Shown here: positions 5,439 through 32,906 of the stretch, one piece after another
How positions within the stretch are numbered: the first letter of the stretch is position 1
How the letters are laid out: the number at the start of each line of letters is the position of its first letter
Source: Shigella phage pSb-1
DNA length: 64,000 nt
Sequence record: KF620435
Reading direction: 5' to 3' (one strand)
Program-made: the position numbers and the translations under genes
The notes under the pieces: model-generated
Database searches by the model: none
The model's input: the letters and a program-made list of their open reading frames with translations, nothing else
What the model was told of the DNA's origin: nothing

Positions 5439-6077
5439 TTAATCGTTAAGGCTACCAGCAGCAATCTGTGCTTGAGCCAGTTGAGCTAATTCAGCTTCAG
5501 TCAACGGAGGCAGTACTTCAATGGAGAACTCTCGTGCTTCGGTTGCACGGATATCCGGTAAGCCATTCTTACCTTTACGGGTAGTAATGTTGATGAACTT
5601 GCGTTCTTTAAGGAACTCGTAGATACAGTACGGAATATGATAGCCATTATCAGTCACTTCACCGAATGGAACAAACTTACGTACAGTACCCATGTATTCG
5701 TTAGCTACGGTGATAATCTCACCCGGCAGGTCTTTCTTCTTAGGGTCAAGGTTCTGGATACGTACACGAATCAGTCGAGTCTGTTCTGCACGAATCTTCT
5801 GACCCAGGGTCATCTTCTTAACACCAGCTTCTTGTTTATCACCCAGCGGATTAACAGCAGCTTCTACTACTGGTTCATCTTTTACTTGTGCAGCTTCAAT
5901 CTTCTCACGAAGCTTCTCAACGGAAATGTTGTTAGAGAACTTGATATTCATCAACGTTGCACGTTGCTTAAGAACTTCAAGTTCACTAGGCATTGCAATA
6001 TCGTTAACGGTATCTTCGTTGCCCTGTACGTTCACTTCTACGTCAGTGGTCGGTTTATCGTTAATGCTCATGTTCAT
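5439..6077 (-). CDS. structural protein (212 aa)
   Basis: Late-block ORF immediately downstream of the capsid gene. Confidence 0.4.
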   Translation of the reverse strand: MNMSINDKPTTDVEVNVQGNEDTVNDIAMPSELEVLKQRATLMNIKFSNNISVEKLREKIEAAQVKDEPVVEAAVNPLGDKQEAGVKKMTLGQKIRAEQTRLIRVRIQNLDPKKKDLPGEIITVANEYMGTVRKFVPFGEVTDNGYHIPYCIYEFLKERKFINITTRKGKNGLPDIRATEAREFSIEVLPPLTEAELAQLAQAQIAAGSLND

Positions 6078-6104
6078 ATTTCCTGTGGTTCATTTAGTTT
6101 TATT

Positions 6105-6130
6105 AAGAGGGGGACATAAGTCCCCCTTGT
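6105..6130. other. 8-bp GC stem-loop (AGGGGGAC-ATAA-GTCCCCCT) between capsid gene and next gene
   Basis: Perfect inverted repeat; T-run follows on the plus strand only. Confidence 0.5.
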
Positions 6131-6144
6131 TTTATTTCGGACTA

Positions 6145-7347
6145 TTACAGAGGAGCAACAGTCTTAATCAGAGCCAGACGTTCTGGGCGTTTAACCAGGA
6201 TACCGTAGTACCACTTGATAGAACTGAAGCCAGTTTCACCATACGGGTCATTACGGTCAGCAGTTTCTTTACCCGGCATCTTAGTCATGATAGTGAACTT
6301 AACAGACTTACCATCAGTCTGGAAGCCAATGGTAGAGAAGGAGTCGTCACCAACTACCAGCATCGGGAACACGTCGTAGTGTTCCTGACCATCAACCATA
6401 GAAGAGCGATAGCCTGGGTTATCAGTAGCCTGTGCACCAGCACCTGCCCAATGCAGCATCTCAGGAACCTGGATAATACGGAACTTATCAATACAACCGA
6501 TTTCACCATTCATCAATGTACCAGCATCAGCATAGTGCTGAACTTCGATGAATGCTTTGTTACCGAACAGGTCTTTCATCGCTTTCAGTTCTGGAACCAG
6601 TTCAGAACCAACGTACATTACACGAGTACCACCAAGTACTTTGGTATCTGTCAGTTTAGAACCAGTGATGATAGTAGTCTGGGTCGGGGTACGGTTCTCA
6701 GTAAGAATCTGGTCAAGACGCATCAGGTTCTTATAAGAAACTACGGACGGGGTAGAGCCTTCACCGGTGATGGTAGCATCAGAAACAGCAGCACCTGCGT
6801 ACAGTACAGTACCAGCAGCAGCCAGCAGGTCTTTCTGGAGAACAGCTTCAGTCAACTGTACAGCACCGTTCATCAGTTCACGTGATAGATGCTCTTTCAG
6901 CTGGTCATCAGAATCGAAGTCCAGAGACTCTTGGGTAAATTCATAGAAGAAGCCGAACTTATGAATAGAACCTTCACGAGCTAAACGAGTAAAGCCTACA
7001 CGGTTAACACGACCACCATTCTCTGACAGCAGAGGAAGTTTAGAGGTGATGTTACCAACGTCTTTGGAAGAACCGTACAGGTTACCATTAACAATGGTAG
7101 CACCATTAGCATCAATACCCTGGTCGTTAATGTTCTTATCATCGAGCAGAGGAACGTACTCATACACCTTAACAGTCTTACCATAGTTCTTCGGCATGTT
7201 AACGGTGTTAGCCAGAGGCATAAAATACTGGTCTTTACGAGACTGAATAATAGCTTTCTTCAGCCAGTAATAGGTATTCATCTGGTCGGAACCAGCACCA
7301 TCAATGCTAGATTTCTGACCGTCAATTGGAGCGTTATAGTTTAACAT
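6145..7347 (-). CDS. major capsid protein candidate (400 aa)
   Basis: Size and position after portal, acidic scaffold-like gene and small ORFs; strong hairpin downstream; N4-like synteny. Not confirmed by motif. Confidence 0.5.
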
Positions 7348-7363
7348 ATCATCTCATTCCTGT

Positions 7364-7678
7364 TTAAAGACTACCCGGTACTGGGAGTTTAGCGAAATCT
7401 TCATCACTCATAGCGAGTGGGTTTACAATAGGCGTTGCTTTACGTGTAGCAGCCCGATTAAGGGAAGCTGCTTTAGCCTGCTCACTGTTAGCCAGAGTCT
7501 GCTTAGGTCGTGCTACACGCACTACCGGCTGAACTGCTGGTTTAACTGCTTGTACCGGTTCAGGCTTAGCCACTTGGTTAAATGCTCCTTGCTGTGCAAG
7601 GAGATTACCAACGTAGTTATAAGCCTGAATGAACGGAGTACCTACCGGAATCTGACCTAACACCTGAAGACGATTCAC
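7364..7678 (-). CDS. hypothetical head-module protein (104 aa)
   Basis: ORF between scaffold-like and capsid genes. Confidence 0.3.
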   Translation of the reverse strand: MNRLQVLGQIPVGTPFIQAYNYVGNLLAQQGAFNQVAKPEPVQAVKPAVQPVVRVARPKQTLANSEQAKAASLNRAATRKATPIVNPLAMSDEDFAKLPVPGSL

Positions 7679-7827
7679 TTCGTTAGCAATGGTGTCATAA
7701 ATACCATTCTCACGTTGTTCGTGAATGGTGTGGAGTAAGCCACGATTCTGATAAAGAGCATCTTTACTGGCAGCATCCCATGTCGAGCTAATAACACCTA
7801 ATGTAGCTTGTCCTTCTTGAGTAGACT

Positions 7828-8583
7828 TTAAGTCGTCAATTTCGGTTGCAAAATCTGCTTCGGTGTCTGTAACACGGTGTTTGCCACCTGGTAATTAATT
7901 TCCTCATCAGGATTAAAGTCCAGAGGATCTGTACCAGAGTCTTTCAACAACTTTTTAATGGCTTCGGGATTCTTCTTATCCAGGTCAATCAGGAAAGAAA
8001 GTTTTTCCTCATCCATTAAACCGTTGTTCTGTAACATCAGCATTACCTTACGGTACGGCTGAAGTTCTTGCATCTTACGAGTATAGTTAGCACCCATCTG
8101 CATCAGGCTAATGGCCTCCTCCGGTGAACGGGGAGTAATCATTTTGCCGTTAGCTTTAAAAGGAGCCATCAACTTCTCATAACCTTCCTTATAGTTGAAG
8201 TCAGCAGGCAGACCTTCAGACTGTTTGCCTTCTTCTTTCTGTTCCTGGCCTGGTTCAGCAGTAGAAGGTTCAGCTTTAGTAATCGGCTCACCGTTACTAT
8301 CAACTTCTGTGTCAACAACTTTATCATCAACTTTATCAGAAGTTAAAGAATTTGCTGAATCATCTTCAACTGGTTCAGTCTCAGGGGAGGTTTCTTCGGT
8401 TGGTAGGTCTTCAACAGCAGAGGTGTCAACTTCTTCATCAGGAGTCTGTACGCCGTTGGTTTCTGGGTTGTTCTGAGTGGAAGTATCTTCCTCAGCAATA
8501 ATAGCTGGGGCTTCCATATTCAGAATCTCATCATCCGACATTGCGAGAATGTCGGAAGCTGTGGTTGCAGCTTCCGTAGTCAT
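7828..8583 (-). CDS. acidic scaffolding-like protein (251 aa)
   Basis: Very Asp/Glu-rich N-terminal half; lies between portal and capsid genes. Confidence 0.4.
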   Translation of the reverse strand: MTTEAATTASDILAMSDDEILNMEAPAIIAEEDTSTQNNPETNGVQTPDEEVDTSAVEDLPTEETSPETEPVEDDSANSLTSDKVDDKVVDTEVDSNGEPITKAEPSTAEPGQEQKEEGKQSEGLPADFNYKEGYEKLMAPFKANGKMITPRSPEEAISLMQMGANYTRKMQELQPYRKVMLMLQNNGLMDEEKLSFLIDLDKKNPEAIKKLLKDSGTDPLDFNPDEEINYQVANTVLQTPKQILQPKLTT

Positions 8584-12356: not shown

Positions 12357-12606
12357 GTGAATCTTCCTTTGGTCGGAATCGTATTAATCTACCTACAATA
12401 TTTAAGGCAAACAGTGCGATTGCAATATTGGAACCATGGGGAATATCTTCTAGGATGTGACGAGGTAATCCTGTCAGCATTGGTTGAATGATATCTATGG
12501 CAGAAAACATAATTAAACCAAACGTACTAATCTGAATAGATGCCCACTTCCAGCACCTTTTCCAGTTAGGTACTAACTCTACCCTTCTTTTTAACCTGCG
12601 AACCAT
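12346..12606 (-). CDS. holin candidate (small two-TM membrane protein)
   Basis: ATG at 12606; two hydrophobic segments (ISTFGLIMFSAIDII and IAIALFALNIVGRLI); immediately upstream of endolysin. Confidence 0.35.
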   Translation of the reverse strand: MVRRLKRRVELVPNWKRCWKWASIQISTFGLIMFSAIDIIQPMLTGLPRHILEDIPHGSNIAIALFALNIVGRLIRFRPKEDSHES

Positions 12607-12920
12607 GCGAATATCTCCCGTCTTGCAGCAGCCAATACACCAATAATTGCACCTGCCCCAGCCCACACCCACTTACCGAAAATTCCAGCACCAACAACTT
12701 TATGCTTAATGGTGATGAACTCTTCAATAGTAGGTTCATTCTTAGCTAGACTATCCTCCACATTCTTTAGTCTGTTACCTATGTCATTGATTGAATCCCG
12801 TAGTTCTACCAGAGTTTCCTCCAGTTTCTCACGGTCCTGCCTGTCTCTTGCCTGGTTATCAAACAGAGTCTTCAATCGTTCCTCCAGTCTGACTAGAAGC
12901 AGTTCACCTGATTCATTCAT
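12591..12920 (-). CDS. lysis-associated protein candidate (coiled-coil plus C-terminal TM)
   Basis: Charged N-terminal region then GAGIFGKWVWAGAGAIIGVLAAA hydrophobic tail. Confidence 0.3.
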   Translation of the reverse strand: MNESGELLLVRLEERLKTLFDNQARDRQDREKLEETLVELRDSINDIGNRLKNVEDSLAKNEPTIEEFITIKHKVVGAGIFGKWVWAGAGAIIGVLAAARREIFAWFAG

Positions 12921-13044
12921 AATATTACCGTAGTTATGTAGTTAGGAATCCCGATAGGGTTGTATCATAAGATGACTCCTAGATAATACTTAGTATGATG
13001 GAGTACATCCAGACATAGTGTCTGGTATTAACTACGAGGTAACT

Positions 13045-13671
13045 ATGTCTATTAAAGATATTTTCCAAAGTGGTAGGGATGTTGTATGCAAAATGAAGGG
13101 TGGTTTGTTGGTCGTGGGAAGTTATGGAGAACGAATAGTTTCTGCTAATAATATCTCAGAGCTTCCACCAGAACTGCTACCCATCCCACCAACAGAGTTA
13201 GAAGATACTTTCCTTCTGGACTTGTATACATGGACTGGGAACCAAGCAGTAAATGATCAGTCCTGGTTCAATTACTTTTCATTACCAGGGATAACTAAAT
13301 CACCCGGAGGTACAGCAGCCTTAACTATTGAAGAGGGTAATCTTAAGTTCCCTGTCAGAACCAGGAATACCCAAGTAATGTTCAGTGTTCGTATCTCGGG
13401 AACTATTGCAGGGGGTGCTGGTACAGCCAGGGAATGGAGAACACAAACAAGACGAATCAATGGAACTACAGTAGTAGGTTCAGACGCTAGTGTTAAAGTA
13501 CAAGGTACGGACATTGCTAACAGAGATAACGTACTAGCTACTTACACGCTTGGTTCAATGGACCCTTTCATGGTAGACGGTATTCAGTTGGGTATGCTTA
13601 ATATCTCAGGACAAGTGATCACCTTAACAGCAGTATCGGTTAGGGTAATGCAAACTGTAAACTCCATATAA
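13045..13671 (+). CDS. hypothetical protein on the opposite strand inside the late block (208 aa)
   Basis: ATG at 13045 with GAGGT RBS; own terminator at 13697..13717. Confidence 0.4.
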   Translation: MSIKDIFQSGRDVVCKMKGGLLVVGSYGERIVSANNISELPPELLPIPPTELEDTFLLDLYTWTGNQAVNDQSWFNYFSLPGITKSPGGTAALTIEEGNLKFPVRTRNTQVMFSVRISGTIAGGAGTAREWRTQTRRINGTTVVGSDASVKVQGTDIANRDNVLATYTLGSMDPFMVDGIQLGMLNISGQVITLTAVSVRVMQTVNSI

Positions 13672-13696
13672 AAAGTATTATTAATAAGTAAAAACT

Positions 13697-13717
13697 AACC
13701 CCGCCGAAGCGGGGTTT
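13697..13717. terminator. bidirectional hairpin terminator (CCCCGC-CGAA-GCGGGG + TTT)
   Basis: Perfect GC stem flanked by A-run and T-run, between converging genes. Confidence 0.6.
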
Positions 13718-13723
13718 CAAACA

Positions 13724-15267
13724 TCAATAAAGCACTTCCCATTTACCGTCTCCGGCTGAGAATAAGGTAACAAACTTACCTGCTTGTATCGTTTTTGCCG
13801 ATGATATATTTATGTTTCCACCAGGCTCTAGAATTAAAGTATTAGCGGTATCTGCTCGCAGCATAACTTTTCTCCCCCGTACATAAGCACCAGAGTTTTG
13901 TATGGTTATATTGTTTACGTCTGCCGCTCCGTTTATTTGAATTATATCTCCAGCTGAGGGTATGCTTAGGGTGGCGCCGGATGCTGACACTCGTGAGTCG
14001 TTCATTGGGTCCCATCGGGTTACGTTGTTAGCAATGATAACCCTTCTACTCTGTGTAAAAATATCATCGGTAATACCAACCGAATTGCAGTTGTTTCCGG
14101 TGACAACAACATCATAGCTATTAGGGTCAATTTGGATGGCGTACTTCTGACCGCCTCCACCACCTTTAAAGCTACCGTTAGAAACCACTATGCCTTTACT
14201 TAATCCGGTGAACGCATATCCACCAGTACCTTGTGGACCAATACTTCAGCTTGCAAATCAGCTGGCGATTTACCTTTTAGATTTCCATGAGATATGAAAC
14301 CGCTTAACGTGAACTCTTCACACGCATTAATTTCAAAGCCTAACCACCCATTAGAGTGCGATATATCACCATTTGAACTTGAACTACGGCAGTCCCCAAA
14401 ATCGAAACCAACACCAGTGTTGTTATACGACACATTGCCCGTCGACGTTATAAACGTGCCATTATAAAGCATTCCCTGGTGTGACGTTGTTGTGCCGTTG
14501 TTATAGCTTCTGTTGTTTGAAACTATTGAGTGAGACGTCTGGCAAACAATACCGTTTTGACCGTTGTTATGAGACTTGCACTCGGAGATCAATACCTGGT
14601 CAGCTACCGGTGTCGACGAGTTAGTGATGAACTGAATAGTAATTCCGTTTCCGCCGTTATCATGCGCATGAACTTTCGATATAGTGACTGGCGAGGTAGT
14701 AAACGTAGCGTTAGATAGCACAAGCCCGTCAGAATACGCGGATTGAATTTCGGTGTCCTTTATAGTTTCACCGCGAACATTTCTCAGGTAGATACCATAA
14801 CCAGAGCGAGTGCCGTCAACTAAACAGTTAGCTACCGTGTTACCACCGCCGACTGGGGTATCGCGTATTGTTATGCTGTGGCCTCCCGAAGCCTTTGATA
14901 CTACACGGTCCAGCACAACACCTGTGCGACCATTAATCATAATGTTATTGGCAGCTGAAGAACCGGACGTTCTTGTTCCATCTATAGTTACATTTACAAT
15001 CCTTACGGAGTTAGTATTGACTTGTATTAAGTCTTCAGTTGTATCACTTTTGCGAGAAATGAACCCAGGACCAAACACATCGCATGTAACACTGATGGTT
15101 GTTACTTTATATTCAATATTTGGATTTAGTTTTACAAAAAAACCATTTGTAGTCGCATAGTCTATTGCTGTCTGCAATACGTCCTGATCTGATAATGATG
15201 ACCGTCTAAAAATCTCAGGATCAACGCCTGACATAAAATAGAACCTTGGGATTATTTCACTTCGCAA
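13724..15267 (-). CDS. tailspike/tail fiber with beta-helix-like repeats, frameshifted (fragments 14200..15267 and 13724..14188)
   Basis: Repetitive Asn/Gly/Ser/Thr-rich sequence; downstream frame open from 14245 and continues the protein; one-base loss near 14225..14245. Confidence 0.5.
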
Positions 15268-15380
15268 TGAAGCATCACCAACACTAACCCACTTACCTAA
15301 CCCAGTACCCCCAGCACTTTCAGGAGTTGAACCGGAAGAAACGATTTTAGGTAACTCACCCTCCCAGCGATACTTACCTC

Positions 15381-15740
15381 CTATATGATAAGTAGTTCAT
15401 TTTTAGCATTAAGGGTAGCACCTGTATCAAATGATCCAGGTAATGTAACGTATTCTTCTCGAGATACGGCTAACTCCCCAAGGTCTACAGAACCAGCTGA
15501 ATGTACAAGTACAGCATTAGCACCAAGACTAACAGCAGTAGTACCTGGGGCAATACCAGCAGGTAGTGAATAGGATCTTTGCGTTTCTTTGTCATAAATG
15601 ACTTTATACCCACCTAAATCTACGCCAACTGAGAAGTAAACAACCTCAGACTGTTTAACACCAAACCTACGGGCAATGGCTTGTTTATTGGTAAGAATAC
15701 CAGTAGAGCCTTTACCACCTTGTGAGAACATTTCGTTCAT
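15381..15740 (-). CDS. hypothetical tail-module protein (119 aa)
   Basis: ORF in tail module. Confidence 0.3.
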
Positions 15741-15790
15741 AAGAACCTCTTTGTTTTTCTAGGAAACCCCTCCGAAGAGGGGGTTGTTTA

Positions 15791-16108
15791 TCAAGCGTAA
15801 CTTAATTCAACTACAGCACCAACGCCAACAGTACCTGTAAAAGTAATAGTAAGGTTGCTAGAGTCAGCTGCAATTGCAGTTACAACTGCTGCTGCTGCAC
15901 CACTACCTACTTGAATTTGATTATCAAGCTTACTACTTACTACAGTATTATCAGCACACATGAAAATAGCACCTATTGCTAATCCATTACCGTTGGTGGT
16001 TTTAATACGCAAGAACTCTACTAAGGTACTGCCAGTCTTGTTGAAGTTAGGGAACACTTCTTTAATGCGATACATAGGTATCTGGATAGTAGTACTGGGA
16101 CTAGCCAT
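15791..16108 (-). CDS. hypothetical tail-module protein (105 aa)
   Basis: ORF whose start overlaps the stop of the upstream tail gene. Confidence 0.3.
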   Translation of the reverse strand: MASPSTTIQIPMYRIKEVFPNFNKTGSTLVEFLRIKTTNGNGLAIGAIFMCADNTVVSSKLDNQIQVGSGAAAAVVTAIAADSSNLTITFTGTVGVGAVVELSYA

Positions 16109-18691
16109 ACCAACTTAGAATAGGGGATGAGTATGGGGAACCTGTAGCACTTGGAGTAGTAGTATAAGAGGGAGCCGATGCTCTTCCTTCCTGCAAAACA
16201 CCATCCCTGTATCTACGAATTGCCCCACCGATACCAAGTTTTACATCAAGATAATTACCAATAGTACATACTGATTGTGGAACACCTTTAGAAGAACCAT
16301 TCCAATAATTACTAATATCGATTTCTACAACATTATCCGAACCAGTGACATTAGCAAGTCGGTACTTCTGAGTCCTGAAACGACCACATAGCTTAACAAT
16401 AGCCCCGGTAGTACCCTTCACTACAGCAACATAGTTAGTATTATCAGTAGTATCATCGTAAGTACTAAGGTAGGCATCAACTACCCCACCATCAACGTTG
16501 ATGTATTCTACCGTAGCGTATTCTGCACCTAACGTACCTGTAACATTAGAATTGATAAATGTATAAGAAGCTAACGTAGCATGGTCTACAGCAGCCATAG
16601 CAAAGTTTGAGTAGTCTACGCCGTTCAAATAAAAACCAGAACCACCCGGTGAATTAGCGTAGTACCCATCAAACAGTAGACTGGTAGCGGATTGTGCATC
16701 TGCAATAGGTACTCCTTCAGCATTTGTACGTGTACCATCATAGAAGCAAGAGTGGGAAATAGTATCATTGCCACGAATGTCTTTGTGTGTTCCACGCCAT
16801 GCATTCTTACACCAGATATCATATAAACATCCACGGAAATTTATATTCTCTGTGCTGTAATTAGTAGCACTTGGGATGTAAATACCAACTGGACGGTCAC
16901 CAATGGGAGCCTCGTTACACCAAATATCTATGTTCTTAATTTGGAAGTAACGCACGGTCTCAGTGGCCATGAATACGCAGTTAATGTTAGCAGGAGCATA
17001 CCCACCAAAAACAGGTATTAAAGAAGTAATGCCTGATTTAGTGGATGTTCTTTTTGCTACACGACCCCCTGATAAATCAATTTTAAAGTGGGAACCTTAA
17101 GTAGTATGGGTGCATCAATCACAAATCTCTTACTTGAGTCTGCGGAAAAGATTCGGTTGAGGGAGTTAAACATTCTCTGGAATGCATCGGAAGAATCAGC
17201 AATACCTGTTGTGTCATCCCCGGTATAAGAGATTGCACCAAAATCTTCTACAGTAGCATTATTGGTATCTACCCGTTCCCAATACCAGTTTGAATTTACT
17301 GTCGCAATCACCCCACCATCATCGTCTGGTACTTCAGACATACCTGTAGTAGAACGAGCAATAAATTCACCACCACCAGTATCACTATTATCATAGTACC
17401 CAGACAAAAGGACACGTGCACCAGCTGAAGGTGGAACCAAAGTTCTTAGAGCAGCGAATGACTGCACACGTCCGATATTGGTAAAGCCAAGAGGAGAATT
17501 TAAACTATTTTCTAAAGTCTCCAAAGCAGACAACGCTTCACTAGGCATTGGCAATAGGTCAACTGTGATATTCCCTGGTGAGTAAGTTAACTGACCGTTG
17601 GATACAGAATTGATATAAACGTTAGTAGGTAGAGTAGGAAGACCATAAATCTTCTGCCCTACCACATCATATATGACCTTCATACCATTCAAATACTGAG
17701 TGGTATTCGTACTCAGAATAACATCATTCTCATGTACGTTAGCAGAACGAGCTACTTCCTGAACAGTACGGTCAGACATAATGAGCGTAGTGGATTCACC
17801 ACCAATCTGAATAATCAGACGGTCATTAGTAGCTAATGGCTCAGTTAATAGGATACGTTGGTTAGCAGCATCAACCGCATAAGACTTGTCTGCTAAACCT
17901 GCATAATAACGTTCGCCATTCTTATAGATAGCCGGTACAGATTCAAATGTGTAAGGAATAGCAATTACTTGCTCACCACCTGAAGCATACCCACCGTTGT
18001 ACAACCAGTTGATCTGAACCCAGTCAGATACATTAGGATTATCAGGAACTGCTGGAGTACCAGTCAGGAACAGGTGTACTTCATCACCTGGTTCTAATGG
18101 TTGAGCCAGAGTAACGGTTAGTGTAGATGCATCGTAAGTAAAACCATAGCCAACTAAGTTGGTATAGCCATCAATTACAATCATCGGTACACCAACCGTA
18201 CCAGCAGGCACTGGGATAGTGGTTTCACCACCGATAGCAGAACCATTATTATATGAGTATGGAATGTATGGAGGTGATGCTTTACCTTCGCCGTCATCTC
18301 CACCACTATCTGAATTAGAAGTGGCAACCAGAATCCAGGAACCAGTAGCGGAAGGGTCATCTGGAATTACACCTGTACGGTCACCTTCTACATACAGATA
18401 ATCTGTAACAACTCTTTTATTGGTATTGTCAAAACCATACAGTCGTACATAAGATGCACTGGTAGGTATGGCCTTCAGTTCAGTTTCTGATTGAACACCT
18501 AACACCATTCCATATTTATTTAAGAAATCATAAATGAGTTTGAGGTTACCTAGGTTGCAGTACACAGTACGAACCACATGGTAAGCATTACCAAGTAATG
18601 CATCTACCATTGGGTCATTGGAACTGTTCTGGCAGTAAGGATTGGTCCAATCCTGCTTTGCATCAAAGGGGGTATGTGCGTTCATCGCCAT
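16101..18691 (-). CDS. large tail protein (~860 aa), frameshifted (fragments 17057..18691 and 16101..16970)
   Basis: Second fragment's frame is open upstream to ~17096 and overlaps the first fragment's end; restoring one base near 17081..17088 joins them. Confidence 0.45.
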
Positions 18692-19391
18692 CCTCGTTGT
18701 TCAAATTTAGTTTCGGTAATTGAAATACTTCCATTAGCCAGGTCGTAATCAACAACCTCACCACAGATGCTTTCATACGTTTGCAGATACTCTGCTGCCT
18801 TAGCGTTAGCTTCAGGAGTATTCAAACCAGTATGGTAACGATAACCCACCCAGTTATGAAGTGCTGTCATTAGCGTGTCTGCTAAGTCAACTTCCTGTTC
18901 TTCATCACCCGTAAGTACAGGTGCTTAGCTTGATAAGTTACGTTAAGTGCCTCGAAGTGTCGAGGTCGCATACACTGAATAGTATCAGGCCGTGGAGTGA
19001 AGATAGCATGAGGGTCTGAATCGTCGTTCAGTCTACGTCGATTCCCTGAGTTATCAAACACATTTAAGATTTTAATAACATCATCCCGGAAAGGTTTCAT
19101 GAACCCATCCATGATATATGGATATTGAATCTCAAGTGTGGGCTTAGTAAATCTGGAGTAGGCATACTTAGATTGAAGAGGATAATCAGTACGACCTTCC
19201 TTCATTTCCACAATACAACTATTAGTTCTAAGGGGGAAACGACTATGTAATCGTACCAGCCCCTCATTAATAGCAGCTAGTATCTCAGGCTTACTATCTG
19301 GTTCAATATCTAATCTGTCATCAGTGACTGCACCAGTACCTTTCAAGGTACTTAGTGCCAAGCCACGATATACTTCCGATAATTTTTGCAT
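18682..19391 (-). CDS. tail/virion protein (~230 aa), frameshifted (fragments 18882..19391 and 18682..18870)
   Basis: Downstream frame open across the upstream stop; GGG-to-GGGG restoration at plus 18908..18910 joins the frames. Confidence 0.4.
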
Positions 19392-19397
19392 GGTTCC

Positions 19398-20986
19398 TCA
19401 CACAATGTATGAACGTAGTGGGTTAACACTATCTTCTTCTTCATCATCCCACATTGGGTCGCCCTTATTATCCACCATAGTCATACCTGCTTGTGGTTTC
19501 CAAGGATTGAGATAACCCAGCATGGAGATAGTATCAATACAGTCATCCTTACCTTTAATTCCATTAATGGTAGCTAGTTTAATCTGGCCCATGAACAGAC
19601 CCATAATAGTTGAGTCTCTCAACTCTTCCGGGAAGTACATCTTACCAGCTTTGAACCATGGAACTACCAGGTTAAAGCGTGACAGCTTAGAAGTTACAGG
19701 ACGGATGCCTGGCTTACCACCTTCAGAGGATGCAAAGTTAAAGAAGACATTACGGTTAATCATTTCTTTCTGAAGGAGTGAAATGAATCCATTTTGCTGT
19801 CCTGTGATTTCGACCCCAACGTTTTGTGGTTGGTATTCTTGAACCAGACGGAACAGGTCATCAAAGTTTTTATCCATAAGCTGACGATTAGCCACACCAT
19901 CAATCCAGAACCAATCTCCATTAGAACTATAAGCCCAAACTGATATGACACTGTAGTCACTGGTCTGTTTCTCCGAAGTAGCAAAGTCGGTTGTGATGTA
20001 ATAGTTGTAGCAGGACTTCATCCTTAACAGTTGCTGTCTGCTATACCATCTAATTTCACTATCCTGAACCAGTCTCTCATCTTCGGAGCTAATACGGAGC
20101 ATAAGTTCCTGATAGAAGCCTGCCAGCTTACCAGTCTTAACTGCCATATCGTATTGAGCTTTGATGTAATCGTAAGAGAATCGGTCATCCCATGCACCCT
20201 GAAATTCTTCCCTACTACAAGGAAACTTCTCACACACAGGCCACACGTTTACATCCCATGCACCAGACTCAACTGCTTCAATGATAATGTCTTCCTTATT
20301 AAAGGGAGTACCATTGAAAATTACTTTACGACGGGTCGGGTCAAGAGCATGGTTCACACCTTTATAAACAGTATCTTTAATAGCTTCCATGCTAGTCTTG
20401 GAGTTAGCATCCCCGTCACTAATCAAGTCATCCAGTACACAGAGTGTTGGACGCTTACCATATATCTTCGTACCACGAAGACCTGTCTTAGCACCAAATA
20501 GCTTAACACCAAGTCGATGCCCCTCTACATTACGAAACTCCAATAGGTTATCCGTAAAGGTAGCTTCGGGTATCCATTGCTGAAGGAACTCACTATTCTT
20601 GTAACGAAACTCAATGTTCTTACGTGCAGACTTAGCACCGTTATCCATTGAGTCAGATACGTAAATCATTCCTTCTACCTTACCCAGCTTGGTAAGTGCC
20701 CAAACACTGCCAGGAACAAAGTAAAGTATTCCATGAACACAGCAGTCTTACCTGCACCACGGAAACACAGATTAACTACATACTGGTTCGGACTAATCAT
20801 CTTATCCAACATCTTCAGGTGAACTGGTGGTGTTTTGTTGGATTCGCCCTCTTTGCCATTAACCAACTTAATAAAGTTGGCAAAGGTAAGAGCAAACTGA
20901 CTAGGAACATAGTTAGATGAATTAAGGTGGGAGTAATCCACCTGGTCTAGCCATTCATCCAGTTCCTGTTTAATTAACTCAGACAT
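19398..20986 (-). CDS. terL: terminase large subunit (T7 gp19-like), frameshifted (fragments 20675..21007 and 19398..20669)
   Basis: Walker A-like FRGAGKT in N-terminal fragment; Walker B-like LCVLDDLISD in the second; restoring one T at ~20700..20706 gives a continuous protein; ATG 20986 with GAGGA RBS. Confidence 0.75.
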
Positions 20987-24116: not shown

Positions 24117-24342
24117 GAGATAAATAGGAGGTAGATAGATACCTCCTCATAATATTTTTGCATGTCAAAATTGTGATAGCTATGTATGGCTACAGTGGTG
24201 TGGCTGGGGCTACACCCTTACACTCAACCATCCCCCCCGGTATGTTGACGGTGTAGCCACTACCCTACCCCACCTTACACGTTACACATGCTCCGCATGT
24301 TATGGACATGTTGTCCTATCATCAACTATTGGAGCTATCATC

Positions 24343-29007: not shown

Positions 29008-29055
29008 AGCTGCTCCGCAGCTTTTGGTTATTAATCACATTTAGGAGAATAAGCG

Positions 29056-29871
29056 ATGTACTCATCTATTGAACATCAGAAGCAACTCGAAAAACTATTC
29101 AATAAAAATCAGCTCTTGCCTCGCATGAGGAAGGAATTCGAGGACTCCGAAGAAATTGACTTTAAGGCATTCGCTGCCTATTTAGAAATTGATTATAAGC
29201 TGCTCATTGATGCAATGGTGCAGATTGCCTTACATAAACGTGCCAACATCCAAACTATGATTGGCTCCCTCATGAGTCACTCAGATGATGCTCAGTACAT
29301 CGCTGATTGTCTGTATAAGATGGCAGAGAATGACTGCTTCAACTATGACCCTACCATCGACATGTTCGGTGTTATCTATGAGATTAGTGAAGATGTTCAG
29401 ATGGAATTGGAAGCATTCCAGTACCCATTGCCCATCGTAAGTGCTCCTAAGCCTGTTAAGTGTAACCGTGATACTGGTTACTACGAAAGCAGGGGCAGCA
29501 TCATCCTCAAGAAGAACCATCATGAGATGGATGTCTGTCTTGACCACATCAACCGCATGAATAACCAACGTCTCTGCATTAACTGGGACGTTGCTAACTA
29601 TGTAAAAGACTCCCGTCCTAACATGGATAAACCTAAAGAAGGTGAAACTCGTCAGGACTATGAGAAACGTGTTAAAGCCTTTGAGAAGTACAGCCGTACT
29701 GCTAAGGAAGTAATGGAGTTAGTGACCAAAGAAGGTAATAACTTCTCCTTGGCTCACAAATACGATAAACGTGGGCGTACATATGCCTGTGGTTACCACA
29801 TAAATTATGCAGGTACTTCATGGAATAAGGCAGTGGTAGAATTCGCACAAAAAGAACTCGTGGAGGACTAA
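29056..29871 (+). CDS. phage RNA polymerase II, small subunit (N-terminal part of a split T7-like single-subunit RNAP)
   Basis: C-terminal KRGRTYACGYHINYAG aligns with T7 RNAP WRGRVYAVSMFNPQG; N4 splits its RNAP II the same way. Confidence 0.6.
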   Translation: MYSSIEHQKQLEKLFNKNQLLPRMRKEFEDSEEIDFKAFAAYLEIDYKLLIDAMVQIALHKRANIQTMIGSLMSHSDDAQYIADCLYKMAENDCFNYDPTIDMFGVIYEISEDVQMELEAFQYPLPIVSAPKPVKCNRDTGYYESRGSIILKKNHHEMDVCLDHINRMNNQRLCINWDVANYVKDSRPNMDKPKEGETRQDYEKRVKAFEKYSRTAKEVMELVTKEGNNFSLAHKYDKRGRTYACGYHINYAGTSWNKAVVEFAQKELVED

Positions 29872-30485
29872 TGAAAATCTGCAAGGACTGTGGGGAAACA
29901 AAAGACCTCACAGAGTTCGTACCAAAATCATCTTGCAAAGACGGTTATGAGGTACGGTGTCGTAAATGTCGAGCCTTAAGGTATAACAAAGCTGACCCAG
30001 TATGTATGTTCAGGAAGACCTATCTAACTCAACTAACTCACTCTATAAAAAGAGGACACCCACCACCCAGCTATTCACTAGAGGATTTCTATGAATGGTT
30101 GGATAAGCAACCAAATATCCATCAACTATGGGATGATTATGTGGCGAGTAACTATGCAAAAGACTACAAACCATCCGTAGACCGTATTAATGACCACAAA
30201 CCATATACTCTAGATAACATTCAGCTAATGTCCTGGAAAGAGAATAGAGATAAAGGAGCACGTAGCAAGAAAGAAGGTAACATTGCCACTGCACAACCCG
30301 TTATCGCCTATCATCTAGATGGTACATTCTATAAAGAATTTGCTACTACAGCAGAAGCTGCACGTCATGTAAGTGGTAGAACGTGGGGTATTATAACAGT
30401 AGCCAATGGCATCCCTGTGAAAGATGGTAGAGGTCATATTTATAACCCCAAAACGTACAAAGGCTTTAAGTGGGCCTGGAAATAA
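29871..30485 (+). CDS. HNH homing endonuclease with C-terminal NUMOD-like DNA-binding motif
   Basis: Cys pairs at N-terminus, HNH-type DRINDHKPYTLDNIQLMSWKEN, then QPVIAYHLDGTFYKEFATTAEAARHVSG. Confidence 0.65.
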   Translation: MKICKDCGETKDLTEFVPKSSCKDGYEVRCRKCRALRYNKADPVCMFRKTYLTQLTHSIKRGHPPPSYSLEDFYEWLDKQPNIHQLWDDYVASNYAKDYKPSVDRINDHKPYTLDNIQLMSWKENRDKGARSKKEGNIATAQPVIAYHLDGTFYKEFATTAEAARHVSGRTWGIITVANGIPVKDGRGHIYNPKTYKGFKWAWK

Positions 30486-30541: not shown

Positions 30542-31758
30542 ATGCAACTGTTAACCGCTCGTGAATACCTGAAAGTAGATATTGCTAATAACTATGGCTT
30601 AGATAAAAAGACATGGGATGAACGTATTAGCTGGTTCGATGAGAATGAAGCTAACCTGCTTAATCTGGTAGATGAAGCTGAAGATTCTGCTCTGTTCTTT
30701 GCTGGTGTAAATGCATGGAAAGATATGAAAGCCGGTAAGCCTATTGGTTATGCTGTAGCTCTGGATGCTACATCATCTGGCTTACAGTTACTGGCCTGCC
30801 TGACTGGTGACCGTTCTGCTGCTGAACTGTGTAACGTAGTTAACTACATGGGAGAGAATGGTAAGCCATTACGTCGTGATGCTTATACAGTCATCTACCA
30901 CAAGATGCTGGACATCCTTGGTGAAGCATCTCGTATTAAACGTAGTGACACTAAGCAGGCAGTTATGACTGCATTCTACGGTTCAGAAGCCAAGCCTAAA
31001 GAAGTATTCGGTGAAGGTATTCGTCTCAAGACTTTTGAAAATGTAATGGAAACTGTTGCTAGTGGTCCTTGGGCACTGAACAAGTTCTTACTGCAATGTG
31101 GTAACCCGGATGCTAACCGTTACATATGGGTACTGCCTGACAACTTCCACGCTGTCATTAAGGTCATGGTTCCAGAAGTACAAACTGTTAACTTCTTAGG
31201 TAAGCCATTCGACATCACTCGTATGGTTCAGGGCACTGAAGAGAAGACTCGTATGCTCTCTGCTAACATCACCCACTCTATTGATGGATGGTGGTACGTG
31301 AGATGCTGCGTCGTTGTAACTTCGACCGTGACTTAGTGGAAGCTGTGCGAGAACTCTGCGATGAAGGTCCATCAGAATATGGGGAAATTGCAGGTAATCT
31401 GGAGAAGGTACAGGAGTTATGGAGCCATTATGAGAAATCTGGCTTCTTATCCTTATCAATCCTGGATTATCTTGACCCATGTACTATTGCTTATGTAGAT
31501 CGTCAGGTAGTAGCAGATATGATTGACACTATGCCTAAGAAACCATTCCCTGTAATGACTGTACACGACTGCTTCCGTTGCCATCCTAACTACGGTAATG
31601 ACCTGCGTCGTCAGTACAATCAGATTCTGTCTGACATTGCTAAGAGTGACCTACTGGGCTTCATCCTGTCTCAGGTACTGGGACAAGAGTTCTCTGCTGG
31701 TAAGCTGGATGACAGCCTCTGGCAGGACATCCTTGAAACAGACTATGCATTAAGTTAA
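30542..31758 (+). CDS. phage RNA polymerase II, large subunit (T7-like palm/fingers), frameshifted (fragments 30542..31336 and 31288..31758)
   Basis: ALDATSSGLQ (motif A), RSDTKQAVMTAFYGS (motif B), VMTVHDCF (motif C); frame change after HSIDG near 31286..31290. Confidence 0.7.
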
Positions 31759-31815: not shown

Positions 31816-31998
31816 ATGCTAATCCCTTTTGAAGTAATCTTTCAGCTAATACTGATAGTTTTATCTGTACTAGTTCTGTCTACAATAGTTCATGCCCACA
31901 AAACTAAGTTTGCTTATTACTACTATGGAGCATACTCACTAGGCTGCTTTGCAATGGCAGGATGGCTAGCTTTTGCTATCTACTGTGTAAACAACTAA
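31816..31998 (+). CDS. small membrane protein (60 aa)
   Basis: ATG 31816 with GGAGGT RBS; two hydrophobic segments. Confidence 0.35.
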   Translation: MLIPFEVIFQLILIVLSVLVLSTIVHAHKTKFAYYYYGAYSLGCFAMAGWLAFAIYCVNN

Positions 31999-32028
31999 CC
32001 CTCCTTTTGGAGGGTTTTTATTTTTATT
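31998..32028 (+). terminator. rho-independent terminator
   Basis: ACCCTCC-TTTT-GGAGGGT followed by TTTTATTTTTATT. Confidence 0.6.
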
Positions 32029-32072
32029 CATCATGTATACTAATCCTGCTATTTACTTATGAGGAAATTGAT

Positions 32073-32906
32073 ATGCCAACTTTGAAAGTAGGTTTTAACA
32101 AAACCACCAATGTTGCAACTGTACTGGATGCCAGTGGTTCTATCCCAGGTGGTTCCGTAGAAGTAGGTACTTTTGTACACCCTGATGCCACTTACCCTGA
32201 TAGTTTAGTTATCTTTCATGGTGTTCGTGATCTGCTGTATAAACGCTCTGCTAAAAACCCAGCCGAAGCAGGCTTCTGGCCTAACAACATCGTGGATATG
32301 CAGTCCATCTCTATTGATATGAAAGCTACTCCACGACTGACTATTGCTACCAAACTGCCTCGTGTAGTCTCCACCATCGAAGGTGAAGATATTAACTGGC
32401 ATGTTGATGTAGCAGGTGGTAAAGCACCATTTACTTATAAATGGCAGTTCAAAGCAAATACTGCTGGTGCAGCATTCGCTGATATTAGCTCTAGTACTAA
32501 CCCATCTGCTGCTACTGCAACATTGATTCTTAATGATGTAACAGCTACTTCTGCTGGTATTTATAAAGTGATTGTTACTGATGCTAATGGAACCACTGTA
32601 GAAGATGAATCGTTGTTAGCTGTAGGCTACTACGAAGCAAGCTCTCTGGTAGCTACTCCTGATTCACTTGCTCTGTCTGTTGCTGACGATCTTGCTGCCG
32701 GTAAGACCGTAACAATTGTTGCTATGCCTGTTGGTTCTTCTTCTGGTGCTTTGTCTATCAAGACCGCTCCAGATTCTGGTCGTGCTACGGCTACCATTGC
32801 TGGTAATGTACTGACAGTTAAACCAGTGGCTGCTGGTGATGCTACTTCTGTAGTAGTTACCAATGGTACGGTAGATGTGACCATCCCTGTTACTGTTGCA
32901 GAATAA
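32073..32906 (+). CDS. Ig-like (Big_2-type) domain protein, N4 gp17-like capsid decoration candidate
   Basis: ATG with GAGGAA RBS; Thr/Ala/Val-rich beta-strand repeats (TVTIVAMPVGSSSGALSIK, VVVTNGTVDVTIPVTV). Confidence 0.4.
   Translation: MPTLKVGFNKTTNVATVLDASGSIPGGSVEVGTFVHPDATYPDSLVIFHGVRDLLYKRSAKNPAEAGFWPNNIVDMQSISIDMKATPRLTIATKLPRVVSTIEGEDINWHVDVAGGKAPFTYKWQFKANTAGAAFADISSSTNPSAATATLILNDVTATSAGIYKVIVTDANGTTVEDESLLAVGYYEASSLVATPDSLALSVADDLAAGKTVTIVAMPVGSSSGALSIKTAPDSGRATATIAGNVLTVKPVAAGDATSVVVTNGTVDVTIPVTVAE

Follow-up and report, generated by a model that had tools for sequence, protein, structure and literature searches.

What does a solitary gene encode when it runs against the late operon of an N4-type phage, and does its product belong to the virion? 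Such an open reading frame (ORF) occupies positions 13045..13671 on the plus strand of the 64,000-nucleotide (nt) stretch of the Shigella phage pSb-1 genome analysed here (KF620435; hereafter the window). A first-pass annotation of the same DNA, made from the letters alone, had described a product of 208 amino acids (aa), a GAGGT ribosome-binding site and a position between the lysis cassette and the tailspike, opposed to the leftward late genes; all of this proved to be as described. The annotation had also credited the protein with no recognisable motif, which no longer holds: the protein joins an N-terminal module homologous to the gp45 capsid decoration protein of phage B2 to a C-terminal TNF/C1q-like knob. 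That it acts as a minimal trimeric capsid-anchored fibre displaying an auxiliary adhesin knob is the reading we favour on sequence grounds, at a confidence that we regard as evenly balanced.

When the profile of the ORF family was compared with the PDB, the sole sequence-level match was chain J of entry 9d82 ('B2 Dec gp45'; E = 5.7e-8), which spans residues 1-47 of the ORF product (13045..13185, plus strand) and residues 1-48 of gp45. In Shigella phage B2, gp45 is a 99-residue homotrimeric capsid decoration protein located by cryo-electron microscopy at the quasi-sixfold positions of a T=9 N4-type capsid (PMC11654681). Pairwise, the ORF product matches the gp45 N-terminus at 38% over 34 aa, while gp45 and its neighbour gp46, a full-length orthologue of the ORF (52-66% identity), match at 49% over 45 aa (E = 1e-14). 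The N-termini of gp45 and gp46 are 46-51% identical, equal to the similarity among gp46 orthologues, and the matrix that includes the ORF spans 38-51%. The module has the consensus M.Y..I.DIL.DGKD...K..GG..VVG..GE.ILAAKD.SELP (about 48 residues) and is predicted to form a beta-hairpin and a helix. Directly downstream of gp45 and on the same strand, gp46 is found in both B2 and Salmonella phage SP154; in these ithacaviruses the lysis genes, Dec gp45, knob gp46 and the small DUF7740 protein gp47 lie together in a single rightward cluster that faces the genes for the tail fibres (B2, locus L003, 7364-8982; SP154, locus L012, 3613-4970). Because gp45 and gp46 have the N-terminal module in common, they could compete for one site or even form mixed trimers.

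Like the ORF product, gp45 (Ithacavirus, Schitoviridae) is a small N4-family protein that starts with the module of about 47 residues and is encoded on the strand opposite the structural genes. It differs in ending, at 99 aa, with a PF11133-type segment where the ORF product carries a 154-residue TNF-like knob, and a capsid location is proven for gp45 alone, the ORF being likened to it by sequence. Residues 55-99 of gp45 correspond to the last 45 positions (233-277) of the phi29 head-fibre family PF11133 (E = 3e-10), and this C-terminal motif recurs in head-fibre proteins of many unrelated phages and is absent from the ORF product. As the motif is generic, capsid specificity most likely resides in the shared N-terminal module. 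We infer that gp45 is anchored on the capsid by its N-terminal module, which is specific to the N4 family, and that the generic motif forms its distal, trimerising part. Between pSb-1 and B2, the major capsid protein is 59% identical. Searched against a set of 5.8 billion proteins, a profile of the N-terminal module retrieved only truncated copies of the ORF gene and no other anchor carriers, and nothing on gp45 or gp46 is found in the supplement of the B2 paper.

The remainder of the protein was assessed by structure prediction. An AlphaFold2 model based on 20 homologues reached a mean predicted local distance difference test score (pLDDT) of 81.8, with residues 55-208 mostly at 81-97 per 10-residue block and the N-terminal 50 residues at 48-68. 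Residues 55-208 (13207..13668, plus strand) are predicted to form a TNF/C1q-like jelly-roll knob, preceded by a proline-rich linker of low pLDDT (residues 48-54, 13186..13206, plus strand, within ...PPELLPIPPTELED) whose length and sequence vary among homologues. The best fold matches of the knob are the tail-needle knobs of phages Sf6 and HS1 (PDB 3RWN and 4K6B), followed by short-fibre tips of cyanophages, spike protein P5 of PRD1, Bacillus BclA and many TNF/C1q heads; Foldseek concurs, and its matches also include two trimeric TNF-like lectins that bind fucose, PLTL and BC2L-C. Among 1.84 billion representatives, a profile search yielded 174 relatives of the knob domain, which always forms the extreme C-terminus of proteins of 170-900 aa. 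In several of them, from Aeromonas phages and metagenomes (P0042, P0062, P0081, ZPAH14), collagen triple-helix repeats immediately precede the knob; in others phage tail-fibre repeats or an SGNH esterase domain do so. Being always C-terminal and often placed after collagen or tail-fibre repeats, the domain thus appears from sequence and model to be a generic trimeric fibre-tip module. Neither the ORF product nor B2 gp46 has a Pfam match, Gly-X-Y collagen repeats are absent from the ORF product by both sequence and Pfam, and no signal peptide or transmembrane segment is visible in its sequence.

The likeness to the Sf6 and HS1 needles is confined to the C-terminal TNF-like jelly-roll, with only 14-18% sequence identity and no sequence-level match. 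Moreover, in Sf6 the knob and a long coiled-coil needle of the gp26 type, which plugs the tail, form one protein, whereas here only 54 residues precede the knob, namely the 47-residue Dec-like module and the short linker, for which a beta-hairpin and one short helix are predicted. A needle split between a gp63-like coiled coil and the knob was considered and rejected, since gp63 is kept in all relatives including N4, regardless of the ORF, and the tail plug of N4 is gp53 (PMC13434306). The heads of BclA/C1q, PLTL and the BC2L-C N-domain have the fold in common with the ORF product, which lacks the collagen stalk. Taken as analogies, these proteins support a trimeric, ligand-binding tip and make lectin activity of the knob a possibility. 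The 'protease' label on some homologues was traced to an old similarity note to a prophage 'predicted protease' and was discarded, as no protease family was matched.

In the favoured reading the protein would thus consist of a 47-residue gp45-type anchor, a short proline-rich linker and a TNF/C1q-like knob. On a T=9 capsid of the N4 type, the anchor would attach the trimer to the hexamer sites that gp45 holds in B2, and the knob would project outward as an auxiliary adhesin or lectin that aids reversible binding to surface glycans, the fibre not being required for infection. The gene would be transcribed alone and rightward from the gap between two leftward late units, and its 3' end together with the adjacent hairpin would form the fixed left flank of a swappable tailspike cassette. 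The proposed role resembles that of the phi29 head fibre gp8.5 and of T4 Hoc, non-essential outward capsid proteins that are sporadically lost; neither has any sequence or fold relation to the ORF product, and the likeness is one of inferred function. Knob-only relatives with other N-termini are encoded between the portal and prohead protease or capsid genes in Uetakevirus PAT1 and Aeromonas phage Gekk3-15, and one is flanked by the genes for the head-closure protein and the major tail protein on a siphovirus contig. The plus strand carries the Hoc-like Dec gene of pSb-1 (window 31962-32906), and B2 gp45 is also rightward; decoration genes of the N4 family thus lie outside the leftward late block, and the opposite strand of the ORF is no argument against a virion role. 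A relative labelled as head decoration (P0046, phrog_9703) was set aside as support, since it sits in a P2-like prophage between lysis and tail-completion genes.

Several points weigh against a capsid-anchored fibre. The short mass-spectrometry table for B2 lists gp45 and not gp46 (PMC11654681). The Hoc-like protein of the related phage Moo19 uses the same quasi-sixfold site as gp45 does in B2 (PMC11654681), and as pSb-1 has a Hoc-like Dec, this protein and the ORF fibre would have to compete or partition. The end of gp45 that contacts the capsid was deduced from sequence comparison, not from coordinates, and the N-terminal module is short and poorly modelled, as its pLDDT shows. Finally, in structure the knob comes closest to a tail-tip domain, in many relatives it belongs to a tail-fibre-like protein, and the neighbours of the ORF in pSb-1 are tailspike genes.

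These last points lead to the main rival, in which the protein is an accessory receptor-binding protein of the tail: the knob trimer would dock through its N-terminal module on the branched tailspike/adaptor complex or the tail tip and bind a second receptor. Proximity to tail genes is not peculiar to pSb-1, as the orthologues in B2 and SP154 adjoin tail fibre genes, and the GenBank records of UE-M3 and UE-S5b say 'tail needle knob'. Furthermore, G7C-like phages are without N4 gp64/gp65, and their secondary receptor-binding protein is unknown (PMC10743462, PMC13434306). The N-terminus, however, is homologous to a capsid decoration protein and does not resemble the conserved N-terminal domains by which spikes of the gp63.1 or gp66 type attach; there is no match to Tail_spike_N or any other Pfam family, and a coiled-coil needle is absent. 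Absence or deletion of the gene in most gamaleyaviruses and in N4 fits poorly with an essential secondary receptor binder, and the protein is neither modelled nor listed among the tail components of B2 (PMC11654681). We therefore consider tail attachment a serious alternative that is nevertheless unlikely.

Less likely still, and in our view improbable, is that the gene is a moron whose product is expressed rightward in the early or middle period, stays out of the virion and has a task inside or on the infected cell, such as anti-defence, host takeover or superinfection exclusion. Transcription in N4 is rightward in the early and middle periods and leftward in the late period (PMC4496689), so the ORF has early/middle polarity within the late block, where it would form a separate unit between a terminator and the next operon. 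Sporadic presence with repeated loss would also suit a moron, as would the moron-typical slots that relatives occupy beside lysis or packaging genes (T7-like CLB_P1, KP34-like H01 and a P2-like prophage). The order of anchor, stalk or collagen and C-terminal trimeric knob is, however, that of an extracellular or virion fibre tip, and the N-terminal module is common to a proven virion protein. The lack of a visible signal peptide or transmembrane segment, a base composition that matches the genome, and the co-directional position of relatives within the head/neck operons of several phages likewise speak against a cellular role of this kind.

A chance ORF or a decaying, functionless remnant might be suspected from the long antisense ORFs and several frameshifts in the window and from the leftovers of the ORF in relatives, yet the ORF is full length and collinear with all homologues, has a good Shine-Dalgarno sequence, encodes a confidently predicted knob with 174 family members and is under selective constraint, so that chance is excluded and this reading as a whole is highly improbable. 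The ratio of nonsynonymous to synonymous substitution rates (dN/dS, Nei-Gojobori) is 0.07-0.11 against UE-M3, Bp4 and nithesis and 0.07-0.17 over all close pairs, and is low in the N-terminal and C-terminal parts alike. Protein identity to the Bp4, UE-M3 and nithesis orthologues is 92-96%. The 40 close homologues measure approximately 200-225 aa, with the C-terminal 150 residues strongly conserved and the N-terminus more variable, and the match to phrog_17779, which has no function assigned in PHROGs, covers residues 1-207 of 208 (E = 1.2e-116). A scan of IMG/VR returned six loci. GC skew turns positive exactly over the ORF, and a GC content of 0.39-0.44 across it, against 0.41-0.46 in the flanks, marks no deviation in composition. 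Together, these data show that the ORF is a real gene under purifying selection. As an example of an antisense ORF in the window, a 319-aa ORF at 5926-6885 on the plus strand lies antisense to the major capsid protein gene and is most likely spurious; long opposite-strand ORFs do arise by chance in the pSb-1 genome.

The region around the ORF is 92-94% identical to Gamaleyavirus genomes (G7C/Bp4-like, N4 family, Schitoviridae). Based on the annotated genomes of UE-M3 and Bp4, the minus strand encodes in order the major capsid protein, gp57-like, gp58-like, portal, Rz, endolysin, holin and gp63-like proteins; a single plus-strand gene follows, and then the minus-strand tailspike and tail genes and the terminase. 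The gp63-like gene (12591-12920, minus strand) is the left neighbour of the ORF, and tailspike ORFs on the minus strand, from 13724, are its right neighbours. The ORF itself equals orf14 of Bp4 and UEM3_012 of UE-M3, where the 'tail needle knob' label is found. It extends from an ATG at 13045 to a TAA at 13669-13671 and encodes a product of 22.6 kDa, and the GAGGT (13036-13040, plus strand) lies 4 nt before the ATG and is kept in UE-M3 and Bp4. An earlier left limit, 13018, corresponds to an in-frame GTG that would give 217 aa; since this codon lies within a hairpin (13010-13025) without a Shine-Dalgarno sequence, and since the N-termini of homologues begin with MSIKD, the ATG at 13045 is the likely start.

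The ORF is far from universal among related phages. It is intact (at least 80% coverage) in approximately 10 of the 75 GenBank records that match the neighbouring lysis region, and remnants are found in eight records. N4 has no gene at this position, and the gamaleyavirus HK2 is without the ORF, its intergenic region being retained no further than the hairpin at 13010-13025. ECBP1 shows a clean internal deletion corresponding to window 13028-13568, with which the Shine-Dalgarno sequence, the start codon and approximately 175 codons are gone, and at least four other gamaleyaviruses (ZQ2, PE007, EC1-UPM and PD205) retain the last 33-37 codons only. By this comparison of genomes the gene is shown to be accessory and apparently dispensable, and not a core structural gene of all relatives, in line with what the first-pass annotation had suggested for such islands.

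We also consider a wider proposal, tentatively and with a confidence well short of even: phages of the N4 family may use one common N-terminal capsid anchor with interchangeable tips, either the helical head-fibre tip of gp45 or the TNF-like lectin knob of gp46 and the ORF, as an optional capsid glycan-adhesion system apart from the tailspikes, while the 3' end of the ORF would serve as a homology arm that moves whole tailspike cassettes, even into Ackermannviridae. The family is already in databases, unnamed or mislabelled as 'protease' or 'tail needle knob'; the combination of anchor and knob, and its tie to a solved decoration protein, were not found in the literature open to search. Should the favoured reading be true, a gene labelled 'hypothetical', 'protease' or 'tail needle knob' in dozens of genomes of therapeutic-candidate coliphages and Salmonella phages would be a second optional capsid decoration with a lectin-like knob. 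This would bear on adhesion to host or mucus, on virion antigenicity and on phage display on N4-like capsids, and the anchor would provide a 47-residue portable tag.

Downstream of the ORF, a perfect GC-rich hairpin, AACCCCGC-CGAA-GCGGGGTT, with an 8-base-pair (bp) stem and a 4-nt loop occupies 13697-13716 between the convergent ORF and tailspike gene. Its predicted folding energy is -14.4 kcal/mol on the plus strand (z -3.4 against shuffles) and -18.7 kcal/mol on the minus strand (z -3.9). The first-pass annotation had taken it for the ORF's own terminator, a perfect and bidirectional hairpin. The hairpin is indeed perfect, but a scan with the terminator consensus called it on the minus strand only, where AGTTTTTACT comes after the stem; on the plus strand there is no more than TTT at this place, and then CAAAC. 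Given the T-run on the minus side, the hairpin is an intrinsic terminator mainly for the minus-strand tailspike unit, and Bp4 and A221 have a different hairpin there, so that it can hardly be called the ORF's own.

The sequence resembles Bp4, nithesis, ECBP1 and A221 up to 13674, 3 nt past the ORF stop, and no further, which places a right-hand homology boundary, or recombination junction, at 13672..13674; beyond it Bp4 and A221 each have a different terminator hairpin and tailspike, and UE-M3 keeps the hairpin at 13697-13716. The boundary fits the reported swapping of tailspikes in G7C-like phages between terminator-like stem-loops (bioRxiv 10.1101/542787). Exchange reaches across phage families: the gamaleyavirus podovirus nithesis and the myovirus A221 (Ackermannviridae, Aglimvirinae) have in common an uninterrupted 2,662-bp block at 93.4% identity (nithesis, locus L013, 3352-6013; A221, locus L004, 4969-7629; corresponding to window 13396-13674 onward). 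It comprises the final 276 nt of the ORF, the terminator and an entire tailspike gene of 765 aa. The ORF fragment of A221, flanked by the VriC gene and the first tailspike gene, carries no annotation, and at least seven other Ackermannviridae genomes have similar fragments, likewise unannotated. As the ORF is intact in gamaleyaviruses and truncated in the myoviruses, the transfer went from Gamaleyavirus to Ackermannviridae. Whatever its function, the ORF marks the fixed left edge of a tailspike exchange cassette, which should aid the prediction and engineering of host range.

The C-terminal two-thirds of the distal tailspike of pSb-1 (13724-15262, minus strand) gave no megablast match in a collection of 50,697 phage records. 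This part is a beta-helix with a depolymerase-type C-terminal beta-sandwich, and matches to relatives begin only near 15260, where the conserved N-terminal part that serves attachment is encoded; a new allele of the receptor-binding part is possible. Several genes of the window are broken. Three fragments of 154, 355 and 119 aa make up the distal tailspike, and three of 544, 289 and 105 aa the gp66-like tailspike, where HK2 has a single gene of 965 aa; a gp68-like gene is truncated, and the genes for the large subunit of RNA polymerase II and for a gp57-like protein are each in two pieces (spans of broken genes: window 13724-19391, 7364-8583 and 30542-31758). Compared with HK2 (15263-19400), five deletions of 1-2 nt are found near 15384, 15765, 16113, 17094 and 18918, most of them in short C/G runs, so that the broken genes look like homopolymer sequencing errors and not real pseudogenes. 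Between two genes for N4-type RNA polymerase II subunits, an endonuclease VII / HNH-like ORF (29871-30485, plus strand; phrog_1035) is probably a homing endonuclease insertion.

The divergent intergenic region between the gp63-like gene and the ORF (12921..13044) measures 124 nt. Its first 105 nt, from 12921 to about 13025, are nearly invariant in UE-M3, Bp4, ECBP1 and the ORF-less HK2, and probably carry the promoter of the leftward gp63-lysis-portal unit; the promoter of the ORF itself probably also lies within 12921-13044. Promoter prediction, which the first-pass annotation had proposed as a check, did yield a sigma-70-like candidate on the plus strand (12972..12999; ATGACT, 16-nt spacer, TATGAT; nine of 12 matches) with hexamers kept in relatives. 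The scan found four sites where 4.9 were expected in shuffles, which makes the candidate no better than chance and no evidence on its own, and the 124-nt region has no meaningful motif in common with other parts of the window. The candidate polymerases are the host enzyme with N4SSB and N4 RNA polymerase II; a consensus for late or middle promoters that could be applied here is not given in the N4 review, and an Rfam scan of 12400-14300 returned nothing near gathering score. A transcript start near 13006 would place the hairpin at 13010-13025 at the 5' end of the mRNA.

This hairpin (13010..13025; CCAGACA-TAG-TGTCTGG) is perfect, with a 7-bp stem and a 3-nt loop, lies approximately 20 nt upstream of the ORF start, and is identical in UE-M3 and Bp4 and degraded in HK2. 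Wherever the ORF has been deleted or replaced, the left boundary lies at this hairpin, homology stopping at 13027 in ECBP1 and at 13021 in HK2. Possible roles are a stem-loop at the 5' end of the mRNA, a hotspot for recombination or a part of the leftward promoter region. As a promoter of the N4 virion RNA polymerase (vRNAP) it was rejected, since such promoters have a GC-rich heptamer and a 5'G..A3' loop (PMC4496689), unlike the TAG/CTA loop found here. Within the same region, a small stem-loop at 12946-12960 (AATCCC-GATA-GGGTT) shows one apparently compensatory pair change in HK2 (C-G to T-A), which weakly suggests that a structure is conserved in the 5' region of the unit that runs leftward.

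Elsewhere in the window, the early region contains four perfect plus-strand hairpins with 6-8-bp stems and a TCC loop, centred at 24293, 24913, 25183 and 29015. Three of the four place the loop within a GC-TCC-GC heptamer, and on the template strand the loop reads 5'-GGA-3'. By sequence all four match the description of N4 vRNAP early promoters (PMC4496689), and the one at 29015, which is followed by a T-rich stretch, could instead be a terminator.

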